Positions 46,090 through 59,712 of a DNA stretch of 64,000 nucleotides are shown piece by piece. This DNA is from a virus. The stretch lies in the IMG/VR virus record IMGVR_UViG_3300028394_003336; one strand, 5' to 3'. Every line of letters begins with the position of its first letter. The first letter of the stretch is position 1. The notes beneath the pieces are model-generated. The model was given only the letters and a program-made list of their open reading frames with translations. It did no database searches and was not told the origin of the DNA. Made by a program: the position numbers and the translations under genes.

Positions 46090-46487
46090 GGGCCCGCCTT
46101 GGATTTGATTTCAGGTGTCAGGGGTAGGTGGCATGTAGTCAGAATTCATCTATGACTTAAATCCATGGTGAAAAAATTCAAATGGCAATACTTTTGCTAA
46201 AATGGCTGCTTTAGGTTTAACTAGAGAAGCTGTTACTGTTGGTGCTTAATTAGTACAGAACAGTCTCGGGTCGGTTAGGACATATAACCTAGGAACAGAA
46301 GTCCACTATAGGGGTCACAGGTCAGAGCTCCTTTAAAATAATTCTGAGACCAAGTTGTTTGCAGGTAGGTTTCTCACATACATCAGACCTGATATTTCGT
46401 AACATTGAGAAACAATGTTGTACTAAACATGTAGTCACTTATTGTTGAGCAGGAAACACAGCGGTTCGACTCCGCTCGGGTCCACCA
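46090..46487 (+). ncRNA. ssrA: tmRNA
   Basis: GGGCCCG/CGGGTCC acceptor with G3.U, T-arm GCGGTTCGACTCCGC, encoded ACCA 3' end, internal tag ORF 46184-46249. Confidence 0.93.
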
Positions 46488-53717: not shown

Positions 53718-53812
53718 GTTCTTTTTTTTTTAGGTTAATGTTTAATAACTTATAAGACTATAAATATATAAAAACTTATCTAATTAGTCAATTTATAGGT
53801 TAAATTATTTTG

Positions 53813-53900
53813 CGGAGAGTGCTGGATTTGAACCAGCGGTACCCTTTAGGAGTACGACAGTTTAGCAAACTATTGGATTAAACCTCTCTCCCAACTCTCC
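53813..53900 (-). tRNA. tRNA-Ser(GCT)
   Basis: GGAGAGT/ACTCTCC acceptor, loop TT-GCT-AA, long variable arm. Confidence 0.9.
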
Positions 53901-53904
53901 ATTG

Positions 53905-53978
53905 TTGGAGTAGGTGGACTCGAACCACCGACATTCACCGTATCAGGATGACGCTCTAACCAACTGAGCTATACTCCA
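53905..53978 (-). tRNA. tRNA-Ile(GAT)
   Basis: Loop CT-GAT-AC; GGTTCGAGTCC T-arm. Confidence 0.92.
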
Positions 53979-53986
53979 ATAAAATA

Positions 53987-54103
53987 AGGTAGAAGCACCC
54001 AAAAGGGGTTTGGCCTCGGGTTACATCACGTATAGGAGCCCTGTGCTCCAACCCCGATATTGTGCGACGGCCGCATCAGTTTCTACTGAATCCTTCTCTA
54101 CCT
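53987..54103 (-). ncRNA. Unassigned structured RNA A in the tRNA array
   Basis: AGGTAG/CTACCT closing stem; GGCC/GGCC, TCGGG/CCCGA and GGAGC/GCTCC helices. Confidence 0.6.
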
Positions 54104-54108
54104 CATTG

Positions 54109-54180
54109 TGTGACTAGAGAGAATCGAACTCTCACATGAAGCGCCACAAGCTTCCGCCCTACCATTAGGCTATAGCCACC
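54109..54180 (-). tRNA. tRNA-His(GTG)
   Basis: GAAGC-TT-GTG-GC-GCTTC; encoded G-1. Confidence 0.9.
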
Positions 54181-54185
54181 ATGTG

Positions 54186-54257
54186 TTGCGGTGAGAAGAA
54201 TTGAACTTCTGACGACTTGGATATGAATCAAGTGTTCTACCACTGAACTACACCGCA
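54186..54257 (-). tRNA. tRNA-Met(CAT)
   Basis: TGCGGTG/CACCGCA acceptor, loop TT-CAT-AT; initiator versus elongator unresolved. Confidence 0.8.
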
Positions 54258-54263
54258 ATTTTG

Positions 54264-54335
54264 AGGTCCCATAGGGATTCGAACCCCAACTCTTTTCGTC
54301 CGTAGCGAAATGTTTTTCCATTAAACTATGGAACC
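54264..54335 (-). tRNA. tRNA-Arg(ACG)
   Basis: TTTCG-CT-ACG-GA-CGAAA. Confidence 0.9.
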
Positions 54336-54339
54336 GAAG

Positions 54340-54410
54340 TTATCCCCTAAGGATTCGAACCTTAAATAATTGGACCAAAACCAATTGTGTTACCGTTACA
54401 CCAGAGGATA
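54340..54410 (-). tRNA. tRNA-Gln(TTG)
   Basis: ATTGG-TT-TTG-GT-CCAAT; U1-A72 pair. Confidence 0.9.
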
Positions 54411-54416
54411 AAATTG

Positions 54417-54490
54417 TGGACCCTCACGGGCTCGAACCGTGGACCTAATGATTATGAGTCATTTGCTCTAACCGACTGAGCTAAGGGTCC
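54417..54490 (-). tRNA. tRNA-Ile2(CAT, lysidine type)
   Basis: GGACCCTTAGCTCAG...GA-CT-CAT-AA-TC body resembles bacterial Ile2 tRNAs. Confidence 0.8.
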
Positions 54491-54492
54491 CA

Positions 54493-54597
54493 AAAACCTA
54501 CCATATGAATGTTTTATCCCCTTACGGGCCACGGCCATTAAGTGCGTCACTTTCATTCATCGGCCATCACACGGTTTCACCGCCTGAGGTAAGTTTT
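54493..54597 (-). ncRNA. Unassigned structured RNA B in the tRNA array
   Basis: AAAACTTACC/GGTAGGTTTT closing stem; CGGT-GAA-ACCG, ATGAATG/CATTCAT and CCC-GTAA-GGG helices. Confidence 0.55.
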
Positions 54598-54598
54598 G

Positions 54599-54680
54599 TG
54601 GGAGTAGCTGGACTCGAACCAACGAACTCAAAAGAGGGGACATTTACAGTGTCCTGCCATTGCCACTAGGCAATACTCCC
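54599..54680 (-). tRNA. tRNA-Tyr(GTA)
   Basis: GGACA-CT-GTA-AA-TGTCC; variable arm. Confidence 0.9.
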
Positions 54681-54686
54681 AAAAAA

Positions 54687-54825
54687 CAGGAAAGGAGAAG
54701 ATGGTCGAGTGGACAACTCCTTTTATGATTGGCATTACTAACGTTGGTTTCAACTCCGATACAGTCGGCCAATGCTTTTTGAGCTCCACCAACAGGCTAA
54801 CCTGTATCATTCCCCAATCAACCTC
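54687..54825 (-). ncRNA. Unassigned structured RNA C (possible double pseudoknot)
   Basis: TGATTGG/CCAATCA, ACAGG/CCTGT, CCGA/TCGG, GTTG/CAAC and AAAGGAG/CTCCTTT helices. Confidence 0.6.
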
Positions 54826-54827
54826 TG

Positions 54828-54900
54828 CACGCATGTCAGGACTCGAACCTGAAACTCCTAGTTTTGGAGACTAGTGCTCTACCAATTGAGCTACACACGC
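54828..54900 (-). tRNA. tRNA-Trp(CCA)
   Basis: CTAGT-CT-CCA-AA-ACTAG; G73. Confidence 0.9.
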
Positions 54901-54901
54901 A

Positions 54902-55021
54902 TTATTTTTTTATAATTCCAGCCTTAACAAGAAACTTACGAGCAGATTTCTTATTCTTACAGGCTTTCTTCGTCACCTTTTTAATTGCCTTGACCATTTG
55001 GTCTATTTGTTTTTTTCTCAT
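54902..55021 (-). CDS. Small basic peptide, 39 aa (not in ORF track)
   Basis: MRKKQIDQMVKAIKKVTKKACKNKKSARKFLVKAGIIKK exactly fills the Cys-Trp tRNA spacer. Confidence 0.55.
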   Translation of the reverse strand: MRKKQIDQMVKAIKKVTKKACKNKKSARKFLVKAGIIKK

Positions 55022-55022
55022 G

Positions 55023-55094
55023 AGGTCAGTACAGGATTCGAACCTGTGTAAATAGTTTTGCAGACTATCGCCTAAGCCACTCGGCCAACTGACC
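55023..55094 (-). tRNA. tRNA-Cys(GCA)
   Basis: ATAGT-CT-GCA-AA-ACTAT; U73. Confidence 0.92.
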
Positions 55095-55099
55095 TTATT

Positions 55100-55432
55100 T
55101 TAATGGGTTCCATTTGTTAATGAAATCCCATGTCTTATTCCTGTGATAAAATCTTCAATCTCACCCTCAGTCATATTTTTATATTTACTCCCAACCATAT
55201 TCCCAATTTCATTACCACAATCACTTAAATCACCTTCATAATCCATTGAGCGACTATATTCTAATAAACTGAATGCAATCCAAGACAAGTCATCACTATT
55301 AAATGTTCTTTCCATATTTTTAATGGATTCTACCAGTTGTTTTCCAAACCATTCTTTCCATTCCTCAAAGGTAAACTTTGAATCAGGATTATCTAAAAGA
55401 AAGTTTTTATATTGTGTTTCTAATGTTGCCAT
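55100..55432 (-). CDS. Hypothetical protein
   Basis: ORF inside the tRNA operon. Confidence 0.7.
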   Translation of the reverse strand: MATLETQYKNFLLDNPDSKFTFEEWKEWFGKQLVESIKNMERTFNSDDLSWIAFSLLEYSRSMDYEGDLSDCGNEIGNMVGSKYKNMTEGEIEDFITGIRHGISLTNGTH

Positions 55433-55457
55433 AATTTTAATTATTTATTATATTTTT

Positions 55458-55691
55458 CTAATGAACCATGTCAAAACTGATGTTATTGTTTGACATTAGT
55501 TCACGGAGTTCTTCCCTTATTTCTTGATAAGCATCATACTTATCTTTTGGTAAATCATCAGACGCGTATTTTGTCTTAGACCTCAAAGACTGGTCCAATT
55601 CCCATAGTACACTCCAAAATTTGAGACCACTATTTGCCAAATCAAAATCTTGTTGGTCATCAGGTAAGTTAAATTCAAGTATTGCTTTCAT
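55458..55691 (-). CDS. Hypothetical phage protein
   Basis: MKAILEFNLPDD start. Confidence 0.7.
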   Translation of the reverse strand: MKAILEFNLPDDQQDFDLANSGLKFWSVLWELDQSLRSKTKYASDDLPKDKYDAYQEIREELRELMSNNNISFDMVH

Positions 55692-55706
55692 AATATACAT
55701 TTTTTG

Positions 55707-55779
55707 TGACCCCGCCGAGACTCGAACTCGGGACTCCTAAATTAAAAGTTTAGTGCTCTACCAACTGAGCTACAAGGTC
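55707..55779 (-). tRNA. tRNA-Lys(TTT)
   Basis: CTAAA-CT-TTT-AA-TTTAG. Confidence 0.92.
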
Positions 55780-55784
55780 TGTTG

Positions 55785-55857
55785 TGGTAACGGTCAGAAT
55801 CGAACTGACGACACCTTGCTCTTCAGGCAAGTGCTCTACCAACTGAGCTACGTCACC
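55785..55857 (-). tRNA. tRNA-Phe(GAA)
   Basis: CTTGC-CT-GAA-GA-GCAAG. Confidence 0.92.
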
Positions 55858-55858
55858 A

Positions 55859-56074
55859 TTAATTCACTTCAATATCTTCCAAAGGTACATCTTCTCCTTG
55901 AGTATGCCTATAAACTGTGTTAAAAAACTCTCCTAACAATCTATAATCCTCAGGAATCATATGACAAAAATCAAATGCAGGAATTGCATCATGAATCTTA
56001 CCTTGAACCACTTTATCTCTTTTTTCATCTGGTTTGTACTCAAACACAATATGACCTCTAAAAATATATTTCAT
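55859..56074 (-). CDS. Hypothetical protein
   Basis: 71-aa ORF between the Val and Phe tRNAs. Confidence 0.65.
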   Translation of the reverse strand: MKYIFRGHIVFEYKPDEKRDKVVQGKIHDAIPAFDFCHMIPEDYRLLGEFFNTVYRHTQGEDVPLEDIEVN

Positions 56075-56075
56075 A

Positions 56076-56136
56076 ACTTCCGATTTTGTCTTGTTTTTAC
56101 TTCCGACTTTGGACGGGTTTTACTTCCGACTTTGTC
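56076..56136. repeat. Three direct repeats ACTTCCGA(T/C)TTTG with 23-nt period
   Basis: Copies start at 56076, 56099 and 56122. Confidence 0.85.
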
Positions 56137-56144
56137 ATTTTTTG

Positions 56145-56217
56145 TAGTCCCTGTAGGAATCGAACCTACGACACCTTGGATGTAAACCAAGTGCTCTTCC
56201 AACTGAGCTAAAGGACT
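56145..56217 (-). tRNA. tRNA-Val(TAC)
   Basis: CTTGG-TT-TAC-AT-CCAAG. Confidence 0.92.
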
Positions 56218-56223
56218 ATAAAT

Positions 56224-56310
56224 GATGACACCATTGACTCTCTCAATGCGTTTACGGCAGGGATTAGTAACCTTATCCTTTCGGAATTCGTCCTCTCTTA
56301 TGCCATCATC
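56224..56310 (-). ncRNA. Unassigned structured RNA D (tRNA-sized)
   Basis: GATGATG/TGTCATC closing stem; TCC-GAAA-GGA and CATTGA/TCAATG hairpins. Confidence 0.45.
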
Positions 56311-56313
56311 TTG

Positions 56314-56385
56314 TACTCGGTACGGGAATCGAACCCGTCTTTTCAGGATGAAAACCTGATGACCTAACCGATAGTCGAACCGAGC
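56314..56385 (-). tRNA. tRNA-Glu(TTC)
   Basis: TCAGG-TT-TTC-AT-CCTGA. Confidence 0.92.
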
Positions 56386-56408
56386 ATTTAGCAAATTTAC
56401 AACCAATA

Positions 56409-56419
56409 TTTCAAAGAAC
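56409..56419 (-). promoter_or_regulatory. boxA-like antitermination motif GTTCTTTGAAA
   Basis: Resembles rrn boxA; a near-identical GTTCTTTAAAA precedes the tmRNA (46076-46086). Confidence 0.5.
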
Positions 56420-56420
56420 C

Positions 56421-56462
56421 AAAAATAAAAAAACCCCGAACTTCATTTCTGTCGTTCAGGGT
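56421..56462 (-). terminator. Attenuator terminator 1
   Basis: ACCCUGAAC/GUUCGGGGU 9-bp stem followed by a U-tract. Confidence 0.85.
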
Positions 56463-56499
56463 CTGTATATATAACTCTCTTCAGGAATTACCAAATCAT

Positions 56500-56574
56500 T
56501 TACACGTCTGAACTACAAGGCATAATCTCATACCAACAAATTTCTTGTTGTTTACTAAAGACTATATGACGCAT
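56500..56574 (-). CDS. Leader peptide 1, MRHIVFSKQQEICWYEIMPCSSDV (in-frame upstream ATG at 56586 adds MNTT)
   Basis: Follows TATTTATA (56592-56599); codons match the 14 downstream tRNAs; 3' part is complementary to the terminator 5' arm. Confidence 0.88.
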   Translation of the reverse strand: MRHIVFSKQQEICWYEIMPCSSDV

Positions 56575-56626
56575 TGTAGTGTTCATGTTATTATAAATAT
56601 ATACCTTTTTATTAAAGTATCAAGTG

Positions 56627-56707
56627 TACCCCAAGTCGGACTCGAACCGACACGACTTACGTCACAAGTTCCTAAGACTTGAGTGTCTACCATTTCACCA
56701 TCGGGGC
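56627..56707 (-). tRNA. tRNA-Leu(TAG)
   Basis: CAAGT-CT-TAG-GA-ACTTG; variable arm. Confidence 0.9.
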
Positions 56708-56710
56708 ATA

Positions 56711-56801
56711 ATCACATCAGACAGGCATTCTACTTCCAGCGCCGAGAAATTGTATCTTATTTAACCCATCTCACCGCTGTATGGGTACCTGAAGATATGA
56801 C
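56711..56801 (-). ncRNA. Unassigned structured RNA E (pseudoknot or switch)
   Basis: GTCATATC/GATGTGAT, CAGGTA/TGCCTG and ACCCAT/ATGGGT helices; loop CAGCG is complementary to downstream CGCTG. Confidence 0.6.
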
Positions 56802-56805
56802 CTTG

Positions 56806-56879
56806 TGATTCGGAAAGGATTCGAACCTTTGACCCCAAACTTAGAAGGTTTGTGCTCTATCCAGCTGAGCTACCGAACC
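56806..56879 (-). tRNA. tRNA-Arg(TCT)
   Basis: CAAAC-CT-TCT-AA-GTTTG; TATCTTTG promoter just upstream (56889-56896). Confidence 0.92.
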
Positions 56880-56907
56880 AATATATTACAAAGATAATAA
56901 AAAAAAG

Positions 56908-57651
56908 TTACTCTGCAAAACTTTCTTCGTAGATGGTATCGTGAGCGTTTTCCTCTACATTATAGGTGTGATTTAATTCAATCGTCATTTCATGGAAGTT
57001 AAATATAAATTCGCCATCTGAACCTTCATTAATTTCCCACCCACCAAAGTTATTTTCAAGTTGTCTATAACACCAATCCTCTATTGAAGTAGGTACTCCA
57101 TCACCGTTTTCTTCAAAACTACTTTCAATATATCCTGAGTCACCTGAACCATTATATTTTACAGTTAATATGCCGTCATTTGGAACCTCAAGGTCATCAA
57201 GAACTCCATCTTTTTCCCATTCCTCAAAAATATCTTTTCCTTCTTCACTATCCCATTCAACACTATTACCATCACCTCTTTGATAAAATGTCCACCAATG
57301 ATTTACTGATATTTCTGATTTTTCACAATCAATATCAAAATCAATTCTTTCGTAATTTAAATCTTCTTCATCAGGTACTTGGAATATTCCATTTTCTTGA
57401 ATATAATCTCCTATTTTTTTCAATATTGGTACTAAACCATCAGGTACTTCGGCACTATAATTGTTTGAAAAATGACTACCCTCATGTTCCCAATCTATGT
57501 CATTAAAATCAAAATCGGCGCTATTGTCAATATCCATCTCAATACTTCCGTCTTGCATTCCAAGTGATGCGAGGTATCTACAAACTCTTCTAAGGTATTG
57601 TTTATCCTCAGGGGTTAATATATTAAATGAATTCACTTTTTTTCTTTTCAT
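56908..57651 (-). CDS. DUF6878-like acidic protein
   Basis: YNGSGDSGYIE...GWEINEGSDG motif. Confidence 0.6.
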   Translation of the reverse strand: MKRKKVNSFNILTPEDKQYLRRVCRYLASLGMQDGSIEMDIDNSADFDFNDIDWEHEGSHFSNNYSAEVPDGLVPILKKIGDYIQENGIFQVPDEEDLNYERIDFDIDCEKSEISVNHWWTFYQRGDGNSVEWDSEEGKDIFEEWEKDGVLDDLEVPNDGILTVKYNGSGDSGYIESSFEENGDGVPTSIEDWCYRQLENNFGGWEINEGSDGEFIFNFHEMTIELNHTYNVEENAHDTIYEESFAE

Positions 57652-57662
57652 AATAATAAATA

Positions 57663-58010
57663 TTAGTCTTCAAGTTTAAGTGTTCTGGTCATCCATTGAG
57701 GTCTTTGGTTGGTTGATATGTTATTAACCCATTCTTTAGCTGACGGAATATAGTTGTTACAATCTTCTTTAACATGTTGTTCTCCAACATATCTGGTGTA
57801 AACTATTTTACCATCACTATTAAGGAATTCAGTACCAAAACGTTTTTCCATCTCAAAAATACCTTCACTATGATGTCTAAACATTCTGTGTAAAGAATCT
57901 CCAAACCATCCTTTGGTCTCATCTAACCATTCATGTAAATGGATGTAATCTTCTGGTTTTCCACCAAATTTTTTGGCGGATGATTTTGCATGTACATTAG
58001 GGTGTGCCAT
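57663..58010 (-). CDS. DUF6915-like protein
   Basis: MAHPNVHAKSSAKKFGG...HEWLDETK...HRMFRHHSEG...GEQHVKEDC. Confidence 0.7.
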   Translation of the reverse strand: MAHPNVHAKSSAKKFGGKPEDYIHLHEWLDETKGWFGDSLHRMFRHHSEGIFEMEKRFGTEFLNSDGKIVYTRYVGEQHVKEDCNNYIPSAKEWVNNISTNQRPQWMTRTLKLED

Positions 58011-58596
58011 TTTTCCAAGAGTTTTTGTCGTATCCAAATAATTGAAAATCTTTTTCTAAAAAGTTATAAACGTAGTTTGACAATGAATTATTATAATATT
58101 CTTGCCAAGGGTTCCTTTTTCCAAATTCAGTTAAATACCCGTTATTTACAATGTTATCTTGAATTATAATTTCTAATTCTTCAGACATATTTTCTTTTAT
58201 AAACCATAAATTTCTAATATCCTCTTCAAGAAATTCTTGTCTTATTAAATAATCAGGAAATCTATTACAAGAAGAATATATTTTTGATAAATTAATCTGA
58301 TAATTTAAAGTTTGAATTGGGAACTCAACCTCTTCTCGCAATTTTTTGATTACCCAATTCCTAAAATCATTTGGTTCTCTTTTTTGATGATGACAATATA
58401 TGTGATAGATTGAAACTAATCTAGAATACGGATTTCTAATATTAGACACACAATAATATTGTTCATGTAATTTGTCTTCTAAAAACCTGTGTGATAAATC
58501 TGTAAAGTCTAAATGTCGCATTATAATGTCGCATGAACGAGTTGCCGCCCTCATAGGTGTAAACCAAAAAACTTTTAAATTATCTGAATATGGCAT
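57997..58596 (-). CDS. Sulfotransferase family 2-like protein
   Basis: PMRAATRS, IRNPYSRLVSIY and KDFQLFGY motifs; paralog of 49115-49732. Confidence 0.7.
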   Translation of the reverse strand: MPYSDNLKVFWFTPMRAATRSCDIIMRHLDFTDLSHRFLEDKLHEQYYCVSNIRNPYSRLVSIYHIYCHHQKREPNDFRNWVIKKLREEVEFPIQTLNYQINLSKIYSSCNRFPDYLIRQEFLEEDIRNLWFIKENMSEELEIIIQDNIVNNGYLTEFGKRNPWQEYYNNSLSNYVYNFLEKDFQLFGYDKNSWKNGTP

Positions 58597-58829
58597 TAAA
58601 ATATTTTTGTTTGTCTCCTTCTAACAATTTCCGCTTCTTTGTACCATCTAATCCAAGTTAAAGATACATCAATTGGTGCCAATAACCAAGCCATCACCAT
58701 AACCATAATGGTGTCTAATTCAGGTGAACCACCTGTGGGGTCATCACTATACCTGTTATTAAGGTTTTTAAACAACTGATAAAAACAATATACTACACAT
58801 ACAAGGTAGTATCCAATAAAAATACTCAT
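58596..58829 (-). CDS. Small membrane protein
   Basis: Start MSIFIGYY; the upstream extension would overlap tRNA-Thr. Confidence 0.65.
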   Translation of the reverse strand: MSIFIGYYLVCVVYCFYQLFKNLNNRYSDDPTGGSPELDTIMVMVMAWLLAPIDVSLTWIRWYKEAEIVRRRQTKIF

Positions 58830-58843
58830 AAATATAAATTTTG

Positions 58844-58916
58844 AGCCTCCTGTCGGAATCGAACCAACGACATTATCATTACAAATGATACGCTCTACCA
58901 GCTGAGCTAAGGAGGC
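58844..58916 (-). tRNA. tRNA-Thr(TGT)
   Basis: TATCA-TT-TGT-AA-TGATA. Confidence 0.92.
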
Positions 58917-58968
58917 AATTTGTGGGTATATGTTCATCACATATTCATGGGTTCCCACACACCCCTTG

Positions 58969-59042
58969 AGCGGATTATCGGGCTCGAACCGACCCTATTT
59001 CACATTGGAAGTGTGATGCCATACCAACTAGGCGAAATCCGC
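58969..59042 (-). tRNA. tRNA-Gly(TCC)
   Basis: TCACA-CT-TCC-AA-TGTGA; GCG start, U73. Confidence 0.92.
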
Positions 59043-59048
59043 TTATTG

Positions 59049-59120
59049 AGCAGTAGAGAGGAATCGGACCTCCGTCTCCACCTTGGCAAGGTGAAGTAAT
59101 AACCATTATACGACTACTGC
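59049..59120 (-). tRNA. tRNA-Gly(GCC)
   Basis: TCACC-TT-GCC-AA-GGTGG; variant T-loop TCCGATT. Confidence 0.85.
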
Positions 59121-59175
59121 GAGAGTGTAGTGGAAGATATCATTCCTGTGGTTACTACACGTTTTACCCACTTTG

Positions 59176-59249
59176 CGGACCGTACGGGACTCGAACCCGT
59201 GAACTCTACCGTGACAGGGTAGCATGATAACCAACTTCACCAACAATCC
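59176..59249 (-). tRNA. tRNA-Asp(GTC)
   Basis: CTACC-CT-GTC-AC-GGTAG; G73. Confidence 0.92.
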
Positions 59250-59255
59250 TTTTTG

Positions 59256-59327
59256 CGTCTCCTCCTGGGTTCAAACCAGGGACTTATTCGTTAACAGCGA
59301 ATCGCTCTATCGCTGAGCTAAGGAGAC
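59256..59327 (-). tRNA. tRNA-Asn(GTT)
   Basis: ATTCG-CT-GTT-AA-CGAAT; G73; variant T-loop TTTGAAC. Confidence 0.85.
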
Positions 59328-59440
59328 TCTTACAAATAACCACAAATTCCAACCTACTATCACTGGAGACAAAAATACAAATATTATTCCTAAAAACAAA
59401 GTCGTAATACTCCAAAATGGATGTTTTTCTTTTTTCATAG

Positions 59441-59513
59441 TAGAGTAGACAGGGTTCGAACCTGCACGCACTTGCTCCCAAAGCAAGGGACCTACCTATT
59501 GGTCAACTACTCT
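59441..59513 (-). tRNA. tRNA-Pro(TGG)
   Basis: CTTGC-TT-TGG-GA-GCAAG; AGAGTAG/CTACTCT acceptor. Confidence 0.88.
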
Positions 59514-59525
59514 ATATCCAATAAT

Positions 59526-59559
59526 AAAAAAACCCTGAACTTTCAAGATTCAGGGTTTT
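59526..59559 (-). terminator. Attenuator terminator 2
   Basis: AAAACCCUGAAU/GUUCAGGGUUUU stem and U7 tract, about 12 nt before tRNA-Pro. Confidence 0.88.
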
Positions 59560-59581
59560 AATATTTGGCTTCATTTTTTAA

Positions 59582-59677
59582 TTATCCAACATCAGTATCT
59601 GAATCTAAGCATAGAGTGCCCGTATCACCATTAGGTGTTGTCGGCGTGTTCCCTGTATTTAAATTCAAATGTCTCAT
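59582..59677 (-). CDS. Leader peptide 2, MRHLNLNTGNTPTTPNGDTGTLCLDSDTDVG
   Basis: Follows TATTTATA (59691-59698); N/T/G/P/D core matches the downstream tRNAs; AGAUUCAG pairs with the terminator 5' arm. Confidence 0.88.
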   Translation of the reverse strand: MRHLNLNTGNTPTTPNGDTGTLCLDSDTDVG

Positions 59678-59712
59678 AGTGTAATAATATTATAAATATG
59701 TTCCAAAGTCAA

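Follow-up and report, generated by a model that had tools for sequence, protein, structure and literature searches.

Why phages carry transfer RNA (tRNA) genes is a long-open question, and it is raised in a concrete form by a 64,000-nucleotide (nt) stretch of the IMG/VR virus record IMGVR_UViG_3300028394_003336, referred to below as the window. This stretch, which has genes for major capsid, portal and terminase proteins, comes from a large tailed phage that is uncultured and whose complete relatives measure 317–321 kilobases (kb). It contains 22 tRNA genes, which are encoded by the minus strand and arranged in two blocks; a short open reading frame (ORF) and a terminator precede each block, and these leaders and terminators lie between positions 56,421 and 59,677. 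What do these two leader-terminator units do in front of tRNA genes? It is quite probable that they are ribosome-coupled attenuators that gate the tRNA blocks and that share an ancestral 3′ switch. The functional part of this answer, that both units are ribosome-stalling transcription attenuators of tRNA blocks, is very likely on the sequence evidence below, and more phage tRNA would probably be made when ribosomes slow on the leader codons.

All elements of both units lie on the minus strand (Table 1), and in each of them a strand of the leader is complementary to the terminator that follows. In unit 1 the core GTTCAG (56513-56508) pairs with CTGAAC (56459-56454), and in unit 2 ATTCAG (59604-59599) pairs with CTGAAT (59553-59548), the exchanged pair being G56513:C56454 in the former and A59604:U59548 in the latter. 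The helix extends into the terminator loop by four pairs past an A-G mismatch in unit 1 and by two pairs in unit 2. The leader features, terminators, antiterminator pairing and loop extensions listed in an earlier note, made from the letters of this DNA alone, are all present in the sequence, and the short leader ORF is conserved, in 24 related leaders for unit 1 and 19 for unit 2. Two peptide features that the note regarded as shared fared less well. A common M-R-H start (at 59677 in unit 2) is probably wrong for unit 1, whose frame has a further ATG four codons upstream, at 56586, that orthologs keep as their start; moreover, several unit-1 orthologs have no second Met, and most unit-2 orthologs begin M-K-N, M-T-T or M-K-Q. 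The Ser-Asp pair, encoded by TCA-GAC one codon ahead of the stop (56500) in unit 1 and by TCA-GAT four codons ahead of the stop (59582) in unit 2, is a by-product of the RNA helix, whose core lies in another frame in L214, L514, L596, L602 and L539 and falls after the stop in L226 and L012; because of these frame shifts, the constraint is one on nucleotides. The unit-1 spacer also contains a second CCTGAA (56487-56481), which is kept in close orthologs and could compete for the leader strand.

The case in which homologs keep the terminator and lose its complementarity to the leader, named in the note as counting against the switch, was not borne out. In a leader-blind search of virus and metagenome contigs, whose pattern comprised the terminator and a downstream tRNA T-loop only and left the leader free, 39 of 53 de-replicated terminator-plus-tRNA units had a contiguous helix of at least 6 base pairs (bp) in fixed register, against 3.5 expected, and 25 had one of at least 7 bp (1.2 expected), mostly 38–49 nt upstream; terminators of the same pattern without a tRNA had the 6-bp helix in 16 of 111 cases (5.2 expected). 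A looser leader-blind search gave most of 74 leader clusters, the terminators of which are diverse. Across these clusters, the duplex of a leader with its own terminator averages −12.1 kcal/mol versus −8.3 ± 0.25 kcal/mol after permutation, synonymous recoding is beaten by the clusters’ own duplexes in 65 of the 74 (p 7e-12), and the terminator 3′ arm, used as a control, shows no pairing effect with the leader. The significance of the helix comes from the homologs, because the window helices taken singly are not significant against a synonymous-codon shuffle (p 0.08 for unit 1 and 0.34 for unit 2). The preference of each window leader for its own terminator (−11.6 and −10.5 kcal/mol, against −6.5 and −7.0 kcal/mol with the other’s) is due to the loop extensions.

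Covariation points in the same direction. In 17 unit-2 orthologs, 97% of the antiterminator cells are paired and four pairs have changed on both sides: the exchanged pair is GC in 13, AU in three and GU in one, two further pairs are distributed as UA 10/GC 4/AU 1 and AU 10/GC 4, and a core pair as AU 16/GC 1. The resulting score of 0.29 was reached by none of 500 shuffles, with slid controls at or below 0.04. The terminator helix in the same alignment shows wobble changes only and no double changes, so that the leader is the partner that follows the shared strand. Among unit-1 orthologs, double changes are found at two pairs; the exchanged pair is GC in 15 of 15, and another is GC in nine, AU in four and GU in two. 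Coincident changes number 10 versus 2.3 expected on a rough tree built from a short, poorly resolved marker, and RNAalifold applied to the orthologs returned the terminator alone. Some alignment members were found by a pattern that fixes the helix core and leaves the loop-side columns free, L252 and L055 were left out of the alignments, and the leader-anchored patterns were loose, with only loci passing a tRNA filter being used. A conserved switch is strongly supported by the leader-blind test together with covariation. As for the double change between the units, it is present and keeps the pairing, but it arose inside the unit-2 lineage rather than being fixed at duplication: G:C is likely the ancestral state of both units, with A:U a later, compensatory change in the window’s subclade and G·U in L028.

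The codons of the leaders correspond to the tRNAs downstream. Ahead of the helix, leader 1 contains all 13 amino acids of block 1 and leader 2 all seven of block 2, and the Arg codon is CGT in leader 1, before Arg(ACG), and AGA in leader 2, before Arg(TCT). In a coverage test on 68 clusters, for which the choice of leader took no account of the tRNAs, the leaders contained 98.6% of the amino acids of their blocks versus 70.3 ± 2.5% under the null, and 55% of leader residues matched the block versus 28%. Codons match anticodons for Arg (p 0.007) and Leu (p 0.04), and the same codon-level test gave no match for Ser. In unit-1 orthologs, leader Val, Gly, Phe and Glu track their tRNAs (p 0.005–0.03, not corrected for kinship). 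L027 is devoid of Val, Lys and Arg(ACG) tRNAs and of the same residues in its leader; in the L514 group, Val and Phe are missing from both leader and block while Gly is in both; and L153 and L262 have a near-identical tail and spacer with different payloads and tRNA blocks, each helix being separately compensated. The earlier proposal of a re-programmable codon payload is strongly supported by coverage, by tRNA tracking and by this last pair. The residue order of the leaders (56500-56574 and 59582-59677) also partly echoes the tRNA gene order (C-W-Y; P-N-G-D). One CAT tRNA (54416-54490) is Ile2-like, which we take from C4/C5 in its acceptor stem, and leader 1 contains an ATA codon.

Ala had been singled out as a special case. 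It is true that the 22 tRNAs represent 19 amino acids, with Ala alone missing, and that neither leader has an Ala codon, but the link between the two is weak and not significant (p 0.14–0.18). The chance of zero Ala in 59 codons is 0.18; the table for unit-2 orthologs is 5/3/1/5 (p 0.14), and across clusters there is a trend (p 0.04). In L026, the closest relative, an Ala codon goes with a block that has no tRNA-Ala, and L008 has the reverse. Among relatives, tRNA-Ala was called once in G004, once in G005 and nowhere in the complete 317-kb G001.

How such a unit would work can be proposed from these elements. RNA polymerase would start near the TATTTATA motif, and a ribosome would translate the short leader, which would serve as a checklist of amino acids whose tRNAs lie downstream. 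If charged tRNA were scarce for any of codons ~2–21, the ribosome would lag, and leader (G/A)UUCAG would pair with CUGAA(C/U), which belongs to the 5′ arm and loop of the terminator, ahead of synthesis of the 3′ arm; with this antiterminator formed, transcription would continue into the tRNA block. A ribosome at the last ~8–10 codons, by contrast, would cover the leader strand, and the terminator would form. When nascent RNA was folded with an assumed 15-nt ribosome footprint, the antiterminator was predicted to form with the P site at or before codon 21 and not later, in both window units and in most orthologs folded; codons up to ~21 are the stretch that carries the tRNA-matched codons. With the 5′ leader covered and the RNA ending ahead of the 3′ terminator arm, the minimum-energy fold includes the helix in both units. 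In unit 2, the inner hairpin is predicted in single-sequence folds of orthologs, is not recovered in the RNAalifold consensus fold and could possibly act as an RNA polymerase pause hairpin. The signal is likely to be loss or overload of the tRNA pool, because more tRNA helps when tRNA itself is limiting.

Are the two units copies of one cassette? Their families are reciprocal best profile (hidden Markov model) matches among 82 leader clusters, followed in the ranking by the third, Leu-Arg-Leu unit of a relative. In a covariance model built from unit-2 orthologs, unit 1 is the only other significant match in the window (E 5e-5). The shared terminator arm occurs in three of 72 clusters and in none of the window’s other terminators, and the third arm-bearing cluster lies in contig L226, which also holds a unit-1 ortholog. 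Similarity outside the paired elements becomes visible via L642, L153 and L262; L642 has a unit-1-type leader before Glu, Val, Phe, Lys, Cys and Trp tRNAs, but a unit-2 DTDVG tail and spacer end. As far as sequence comparison goes, homology of the two units is confined to the switch end and the payloads are unrelated. Any duplication must be old, because both units co-occur across the phage group, and a later exchange of the 3′ module is indistinguishable from duplication. An ancient common ancestry of the two switches is probable: an ancestral 3′ module would have been duplicated or swapped before the phage group diverged, and the 5′ payload rewritten. The duplicated regulatory cassette of the earlier note is likely in this form, on indirect evidence, with the switch end for it and the payloads against it, while the arguments from M-R-H, Ser-Asp and Ala fail. 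In L226 (1400-1500), a Leu/Arg-rich leader precedes Leu, Arg and Leu tRNAs, with the same terminator arm and an antiterminator strand just past the stop; the window has neither a unit of this type nor Leu(TAA).

Several findings weigh against the reading of the units as attenuators of shared descent. The 5′ leaders and spacers of the window units are alike only at chance level (p 0.71 and 0.32), the unit-1 and unit-2 peptide profiles are unrelated (hhalign 2%), plain terminators with this arm amount to ~4%, and the covariance model gives 33 bits to L017, which is a terminator but no attenuator, and 36 bits to unit 1. Leader 2 has TTG and TTA codons before a block without Leu(TAA); in the unit-1 orthologs L002 and L013 there is no helix inside the leader, and it occurs after the stop; for both units, a host-type promoter separates the terminator from the first tRNA in most orthologs; and on full-length RNA the terminator conformer is 6–9 kcal/mol more stable, so that the switch must be kinetic. 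In classical attenuators, the choice between terminator and antiterminator is kinetic.

That two attenuators of independent origin came to look alike, because these phages favour CCC(U/C)GAA terminators and these force a matching leader strand, is unlikely, though it has some support in a likeness limited to functional elements, in the presence of the arm in seven of 136 other terminators (about five of them non-attenuators) and in the many co-occurring units of one genome that differ in terminator (within-genome similarity 5.7 versus 4.9 of 9, p 0.014). However, the rarity of the arm among clusters, its third occurrence in the L226 contig, its absence from the window’s other terminators and the reciprocal best matches argue against it, and L642 is poorly explained by convergence. 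A switch that senses general slowing or uncoupling of ribosomes, as upon host shut-off or antibiotics, with the codon match a side effect or of little weight, is quite improbable. A list of 13 amino acids at one or two codons each does approximate a general sensor, and some leaders retain residues whose tRNA is lost; yet small blocks are sharply matched (a Lys-rich leader before three Lys tRNAs, a Ser/Arg-rich leader before Ser and Arg tRNAs), the kind of Arg codon agrees with the anticodon of the local tRNA, and close relatives that have lost tRNAs have lost the corresponding leader residues as well.

Two kinds of putative promoter accompany the units. The motif TATTTAT occurs within 45 nt upstream of 17 of the 64 window ORFs and of 16 of 19 unit-2 orthologs. 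The host-type promoter has the form TAnnTTTG, usually with TTTG at −33, and is also found before Arg(TCT), where the window has TATCTTTG. With this promoter behind the terminator, tRNA blocks may be transcribed without the leader, and the copy after terminator 1 may bypass that terminator; the simplest reading is one of two routes, basal from the host-type promoter and attenuated from TATTTATA. That leader and terminator form merely a closed small transcript with a minor or vestigial helix, the tRNAs being transcribed from their own host-type promoter, is very improbable: such a promoter does stand behind the terminator in most orthologs and before Arg(TCT), but window unit 2 and L600 lack it after the terminator, it is not enriched over the 74 clusters (8 versus 5 expected), in which boxA-like sites after the terminator are (18 versus 1), the unit-1 boxA lies upstream of the −7 element and is therefore carried only by read-through RNA, and the covarying helix and payload match are left unexplained. 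The TTTG-N20-TAnnTTTG promoters around the tRNA genes, compared with a published Bacteroidota consensus (PMC6847099), point to a Bacteroidota host for the phage; the nearest cultured capsid matches, Flavobacterium immuto phages among them, are ~41% identical. The tRNA-Pro of the window (59440-59530) is unlike that of close unit-2 orthologs and similar to that of L262, which, with the missing post-terminator promoter, suggests a local replacement.

Control of this kind is familiar from amino-acid operons, for which E. coli trpL, hisL, pheL, leuL, thrL and ilvL are examples, and from pheST (pheM). T-box riboswitches also set a terminator against an antiterminator according to tRNA charging; they bind tRNA directly and have no translated leader, and the window units have no Rfam T-box match. 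Like amino-acid operon attenuators, the window units have a short leader in which cognate codons occur and an antiterminator that excludes, and is excluded by, an intrinsic terminator; read-through on stalling, known for that class, is proposed for the window units (PMC3082878 for the pheL mechanism; PMC4833913 for the scope of the class). Unlike the window units, which precede phage tRNAs, those attenuators regulate biosynthetic enzymes or synthetases; their leaders have runs for one to three amino acids, whereas the phage leaders list 7–13 at one to few codons each, and several phage cassettes per genome divide the tRNA set. By sequence and folding model, the window units match the trpL-type features tested, with the pause hairpin as a possible one, except target class and Rfam membership. 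Up to E 1, Rfam gave no leader-family match at either unit; GenBank phages matched at the tRNA level only; and a literature search, with subscription journals mostly beyond its reach, found no leader-peptide attenuator of tRNA genes. Among regulated tRNA operons, the nearest one found is the trn operon of Anabaena, an accessory tRNA operon induced by translational stress (PMC10272220), which is controlled by a protein repressor, TrcR; attenuation or a leader peptide is not mentioned there. A likely reason for sensing tRNA shortage is supplied by phage tRNAs that counter host anticodon nucleases, as hosts deplete tRNA pools during infection (PMC10264068); that paper does not address the regulation of phage tRNA genes and mentions neither attenuation nor a leader.

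A switch by which slow reading of their own codons would activate tRNA genes is an argument for phage tRNAs being an answer to a shortage, an idea that becomes testable with a 170-nt reporter. It also widens the range of ribosome-mediated attenuation, which would now take in stable-RNA genes and viruses, and adds an evolutionary point: each change in the shared strand is matched by the leader and not by the terminator 3′ arm, and a single switch end is combined with different payloads. In its broadest form, the proposal is that of a modular, duplicable tRNA-pool sensor, with a 3′ RNA switch that is copied or swapped before tRNA blocks and a 5′ codon list that is revised upon gain, loss or relocation of tRNAs, so that phages and some bacteria could gauge many charged tRNAs and restock them, for example after host tRNA cleavage; this we hold to be somewhat better than an even chance. 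The tRNAs that a phage monitors would then be predictable from its leaders, and a programmable sensor of tRNA shortage could be made from the module.

Table 1. Elements of the two leader-terminator units and their tRNA blocks (window coordinates)
Feature	Positions	Strand	Remarks
tRNA block 1	53812..56385	-	Glu, Val, Phe, Lys, Cys, Trp, Tyr, CAT (Ile2-like), Gln, Arg(ACG), CAT (Met), His, Ile, Ser
Bacteroidota-type promoter (TTTG, 20 nt, TAAATTTG)	56392..56423	-	between terminator 1 and tRNA-Glu; putative function
boxA-like site	56419-56409	-	inside promoter 56392..56423
Intrinsic terminator 1	56427..56462	-	z -4.7
Leader ORF 1	56500..56586	-	28 amino acids from conserved ATG at 56586; M-R-H at 56574 probably internal
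Antiterminator strand, unit 1	56508..56518	-	pairs with 56459-56449
TATTTATA motif before leader 1	56592..56599	-	
tRNA block 2	56626..59513	-	Pro, Asn, Asp, Gly(GCC), Gly(TCC), Thr, then four ORFs, then Arg(TCT), Leu(TAG)
Intrinsic terminator 2	59526..59559	-	z -3.9
Antiterminator strand, unit 2 (AGATTCAG)	59599..59606	-	pairs with 59553-59546
Inner hairpin, unit 2	59559..59595	-	between antiterminator strands; leader tail DTDVG pairs with spacer
Leader ORF 2	59582..59677	-	31 amino acids; codons 2-21 rich in N, T, G, P, D, L; Arg as AGA
TATTTATA motif before leader 2	59691..59698	-	probable phage promoter element; putative function

Other features were noted in and around the tRNA array. Block 2 contains genes of DUF6878, DUF6915 and the sulfotransferase family (56908-58596), and three 23-nt tandem repeats (56076-56144) lie between tRNA-Val and a 71-amino-acid ORF. 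Two spacers on the minus strand, 56709-56803 and 56221-56312, are structured (z −3.7 and −2.6), are not tRNAs and match no Rfam family. A transfer-messenger RNA is located at 46090-46487 on the plus strand (Rfam 74 bits; missed by ARAGORN).

The same anatomy was seen on bacterial contigs, namely L280, L301 and L309 (Flavihumibacter, Chitinophaga), L291 (Leptospiraceae metagenome-assembled genome, MAG), L334 (Acidobacteriota MAG), L281 (Phycisphaera MAG) and L363, while most other bacterial matches have no such leader. These contigs include a Gly/Ala/Phe-rich leader before Phe, Gly and Ala tRNAs (duplex −19.5), a four-Cys leader before tRNA-Cys (−22.1) and a Leu/Ser/Tyr leader before Tyr, Ser and Leu tRNAs (−21.2). 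A tRNA-Ile with the TAT anticodon, rare in bacteria, is present in relatives of the phage (L612:1585-1659) and in the Chitinophagaceae blocks of L280, L301 and L309.

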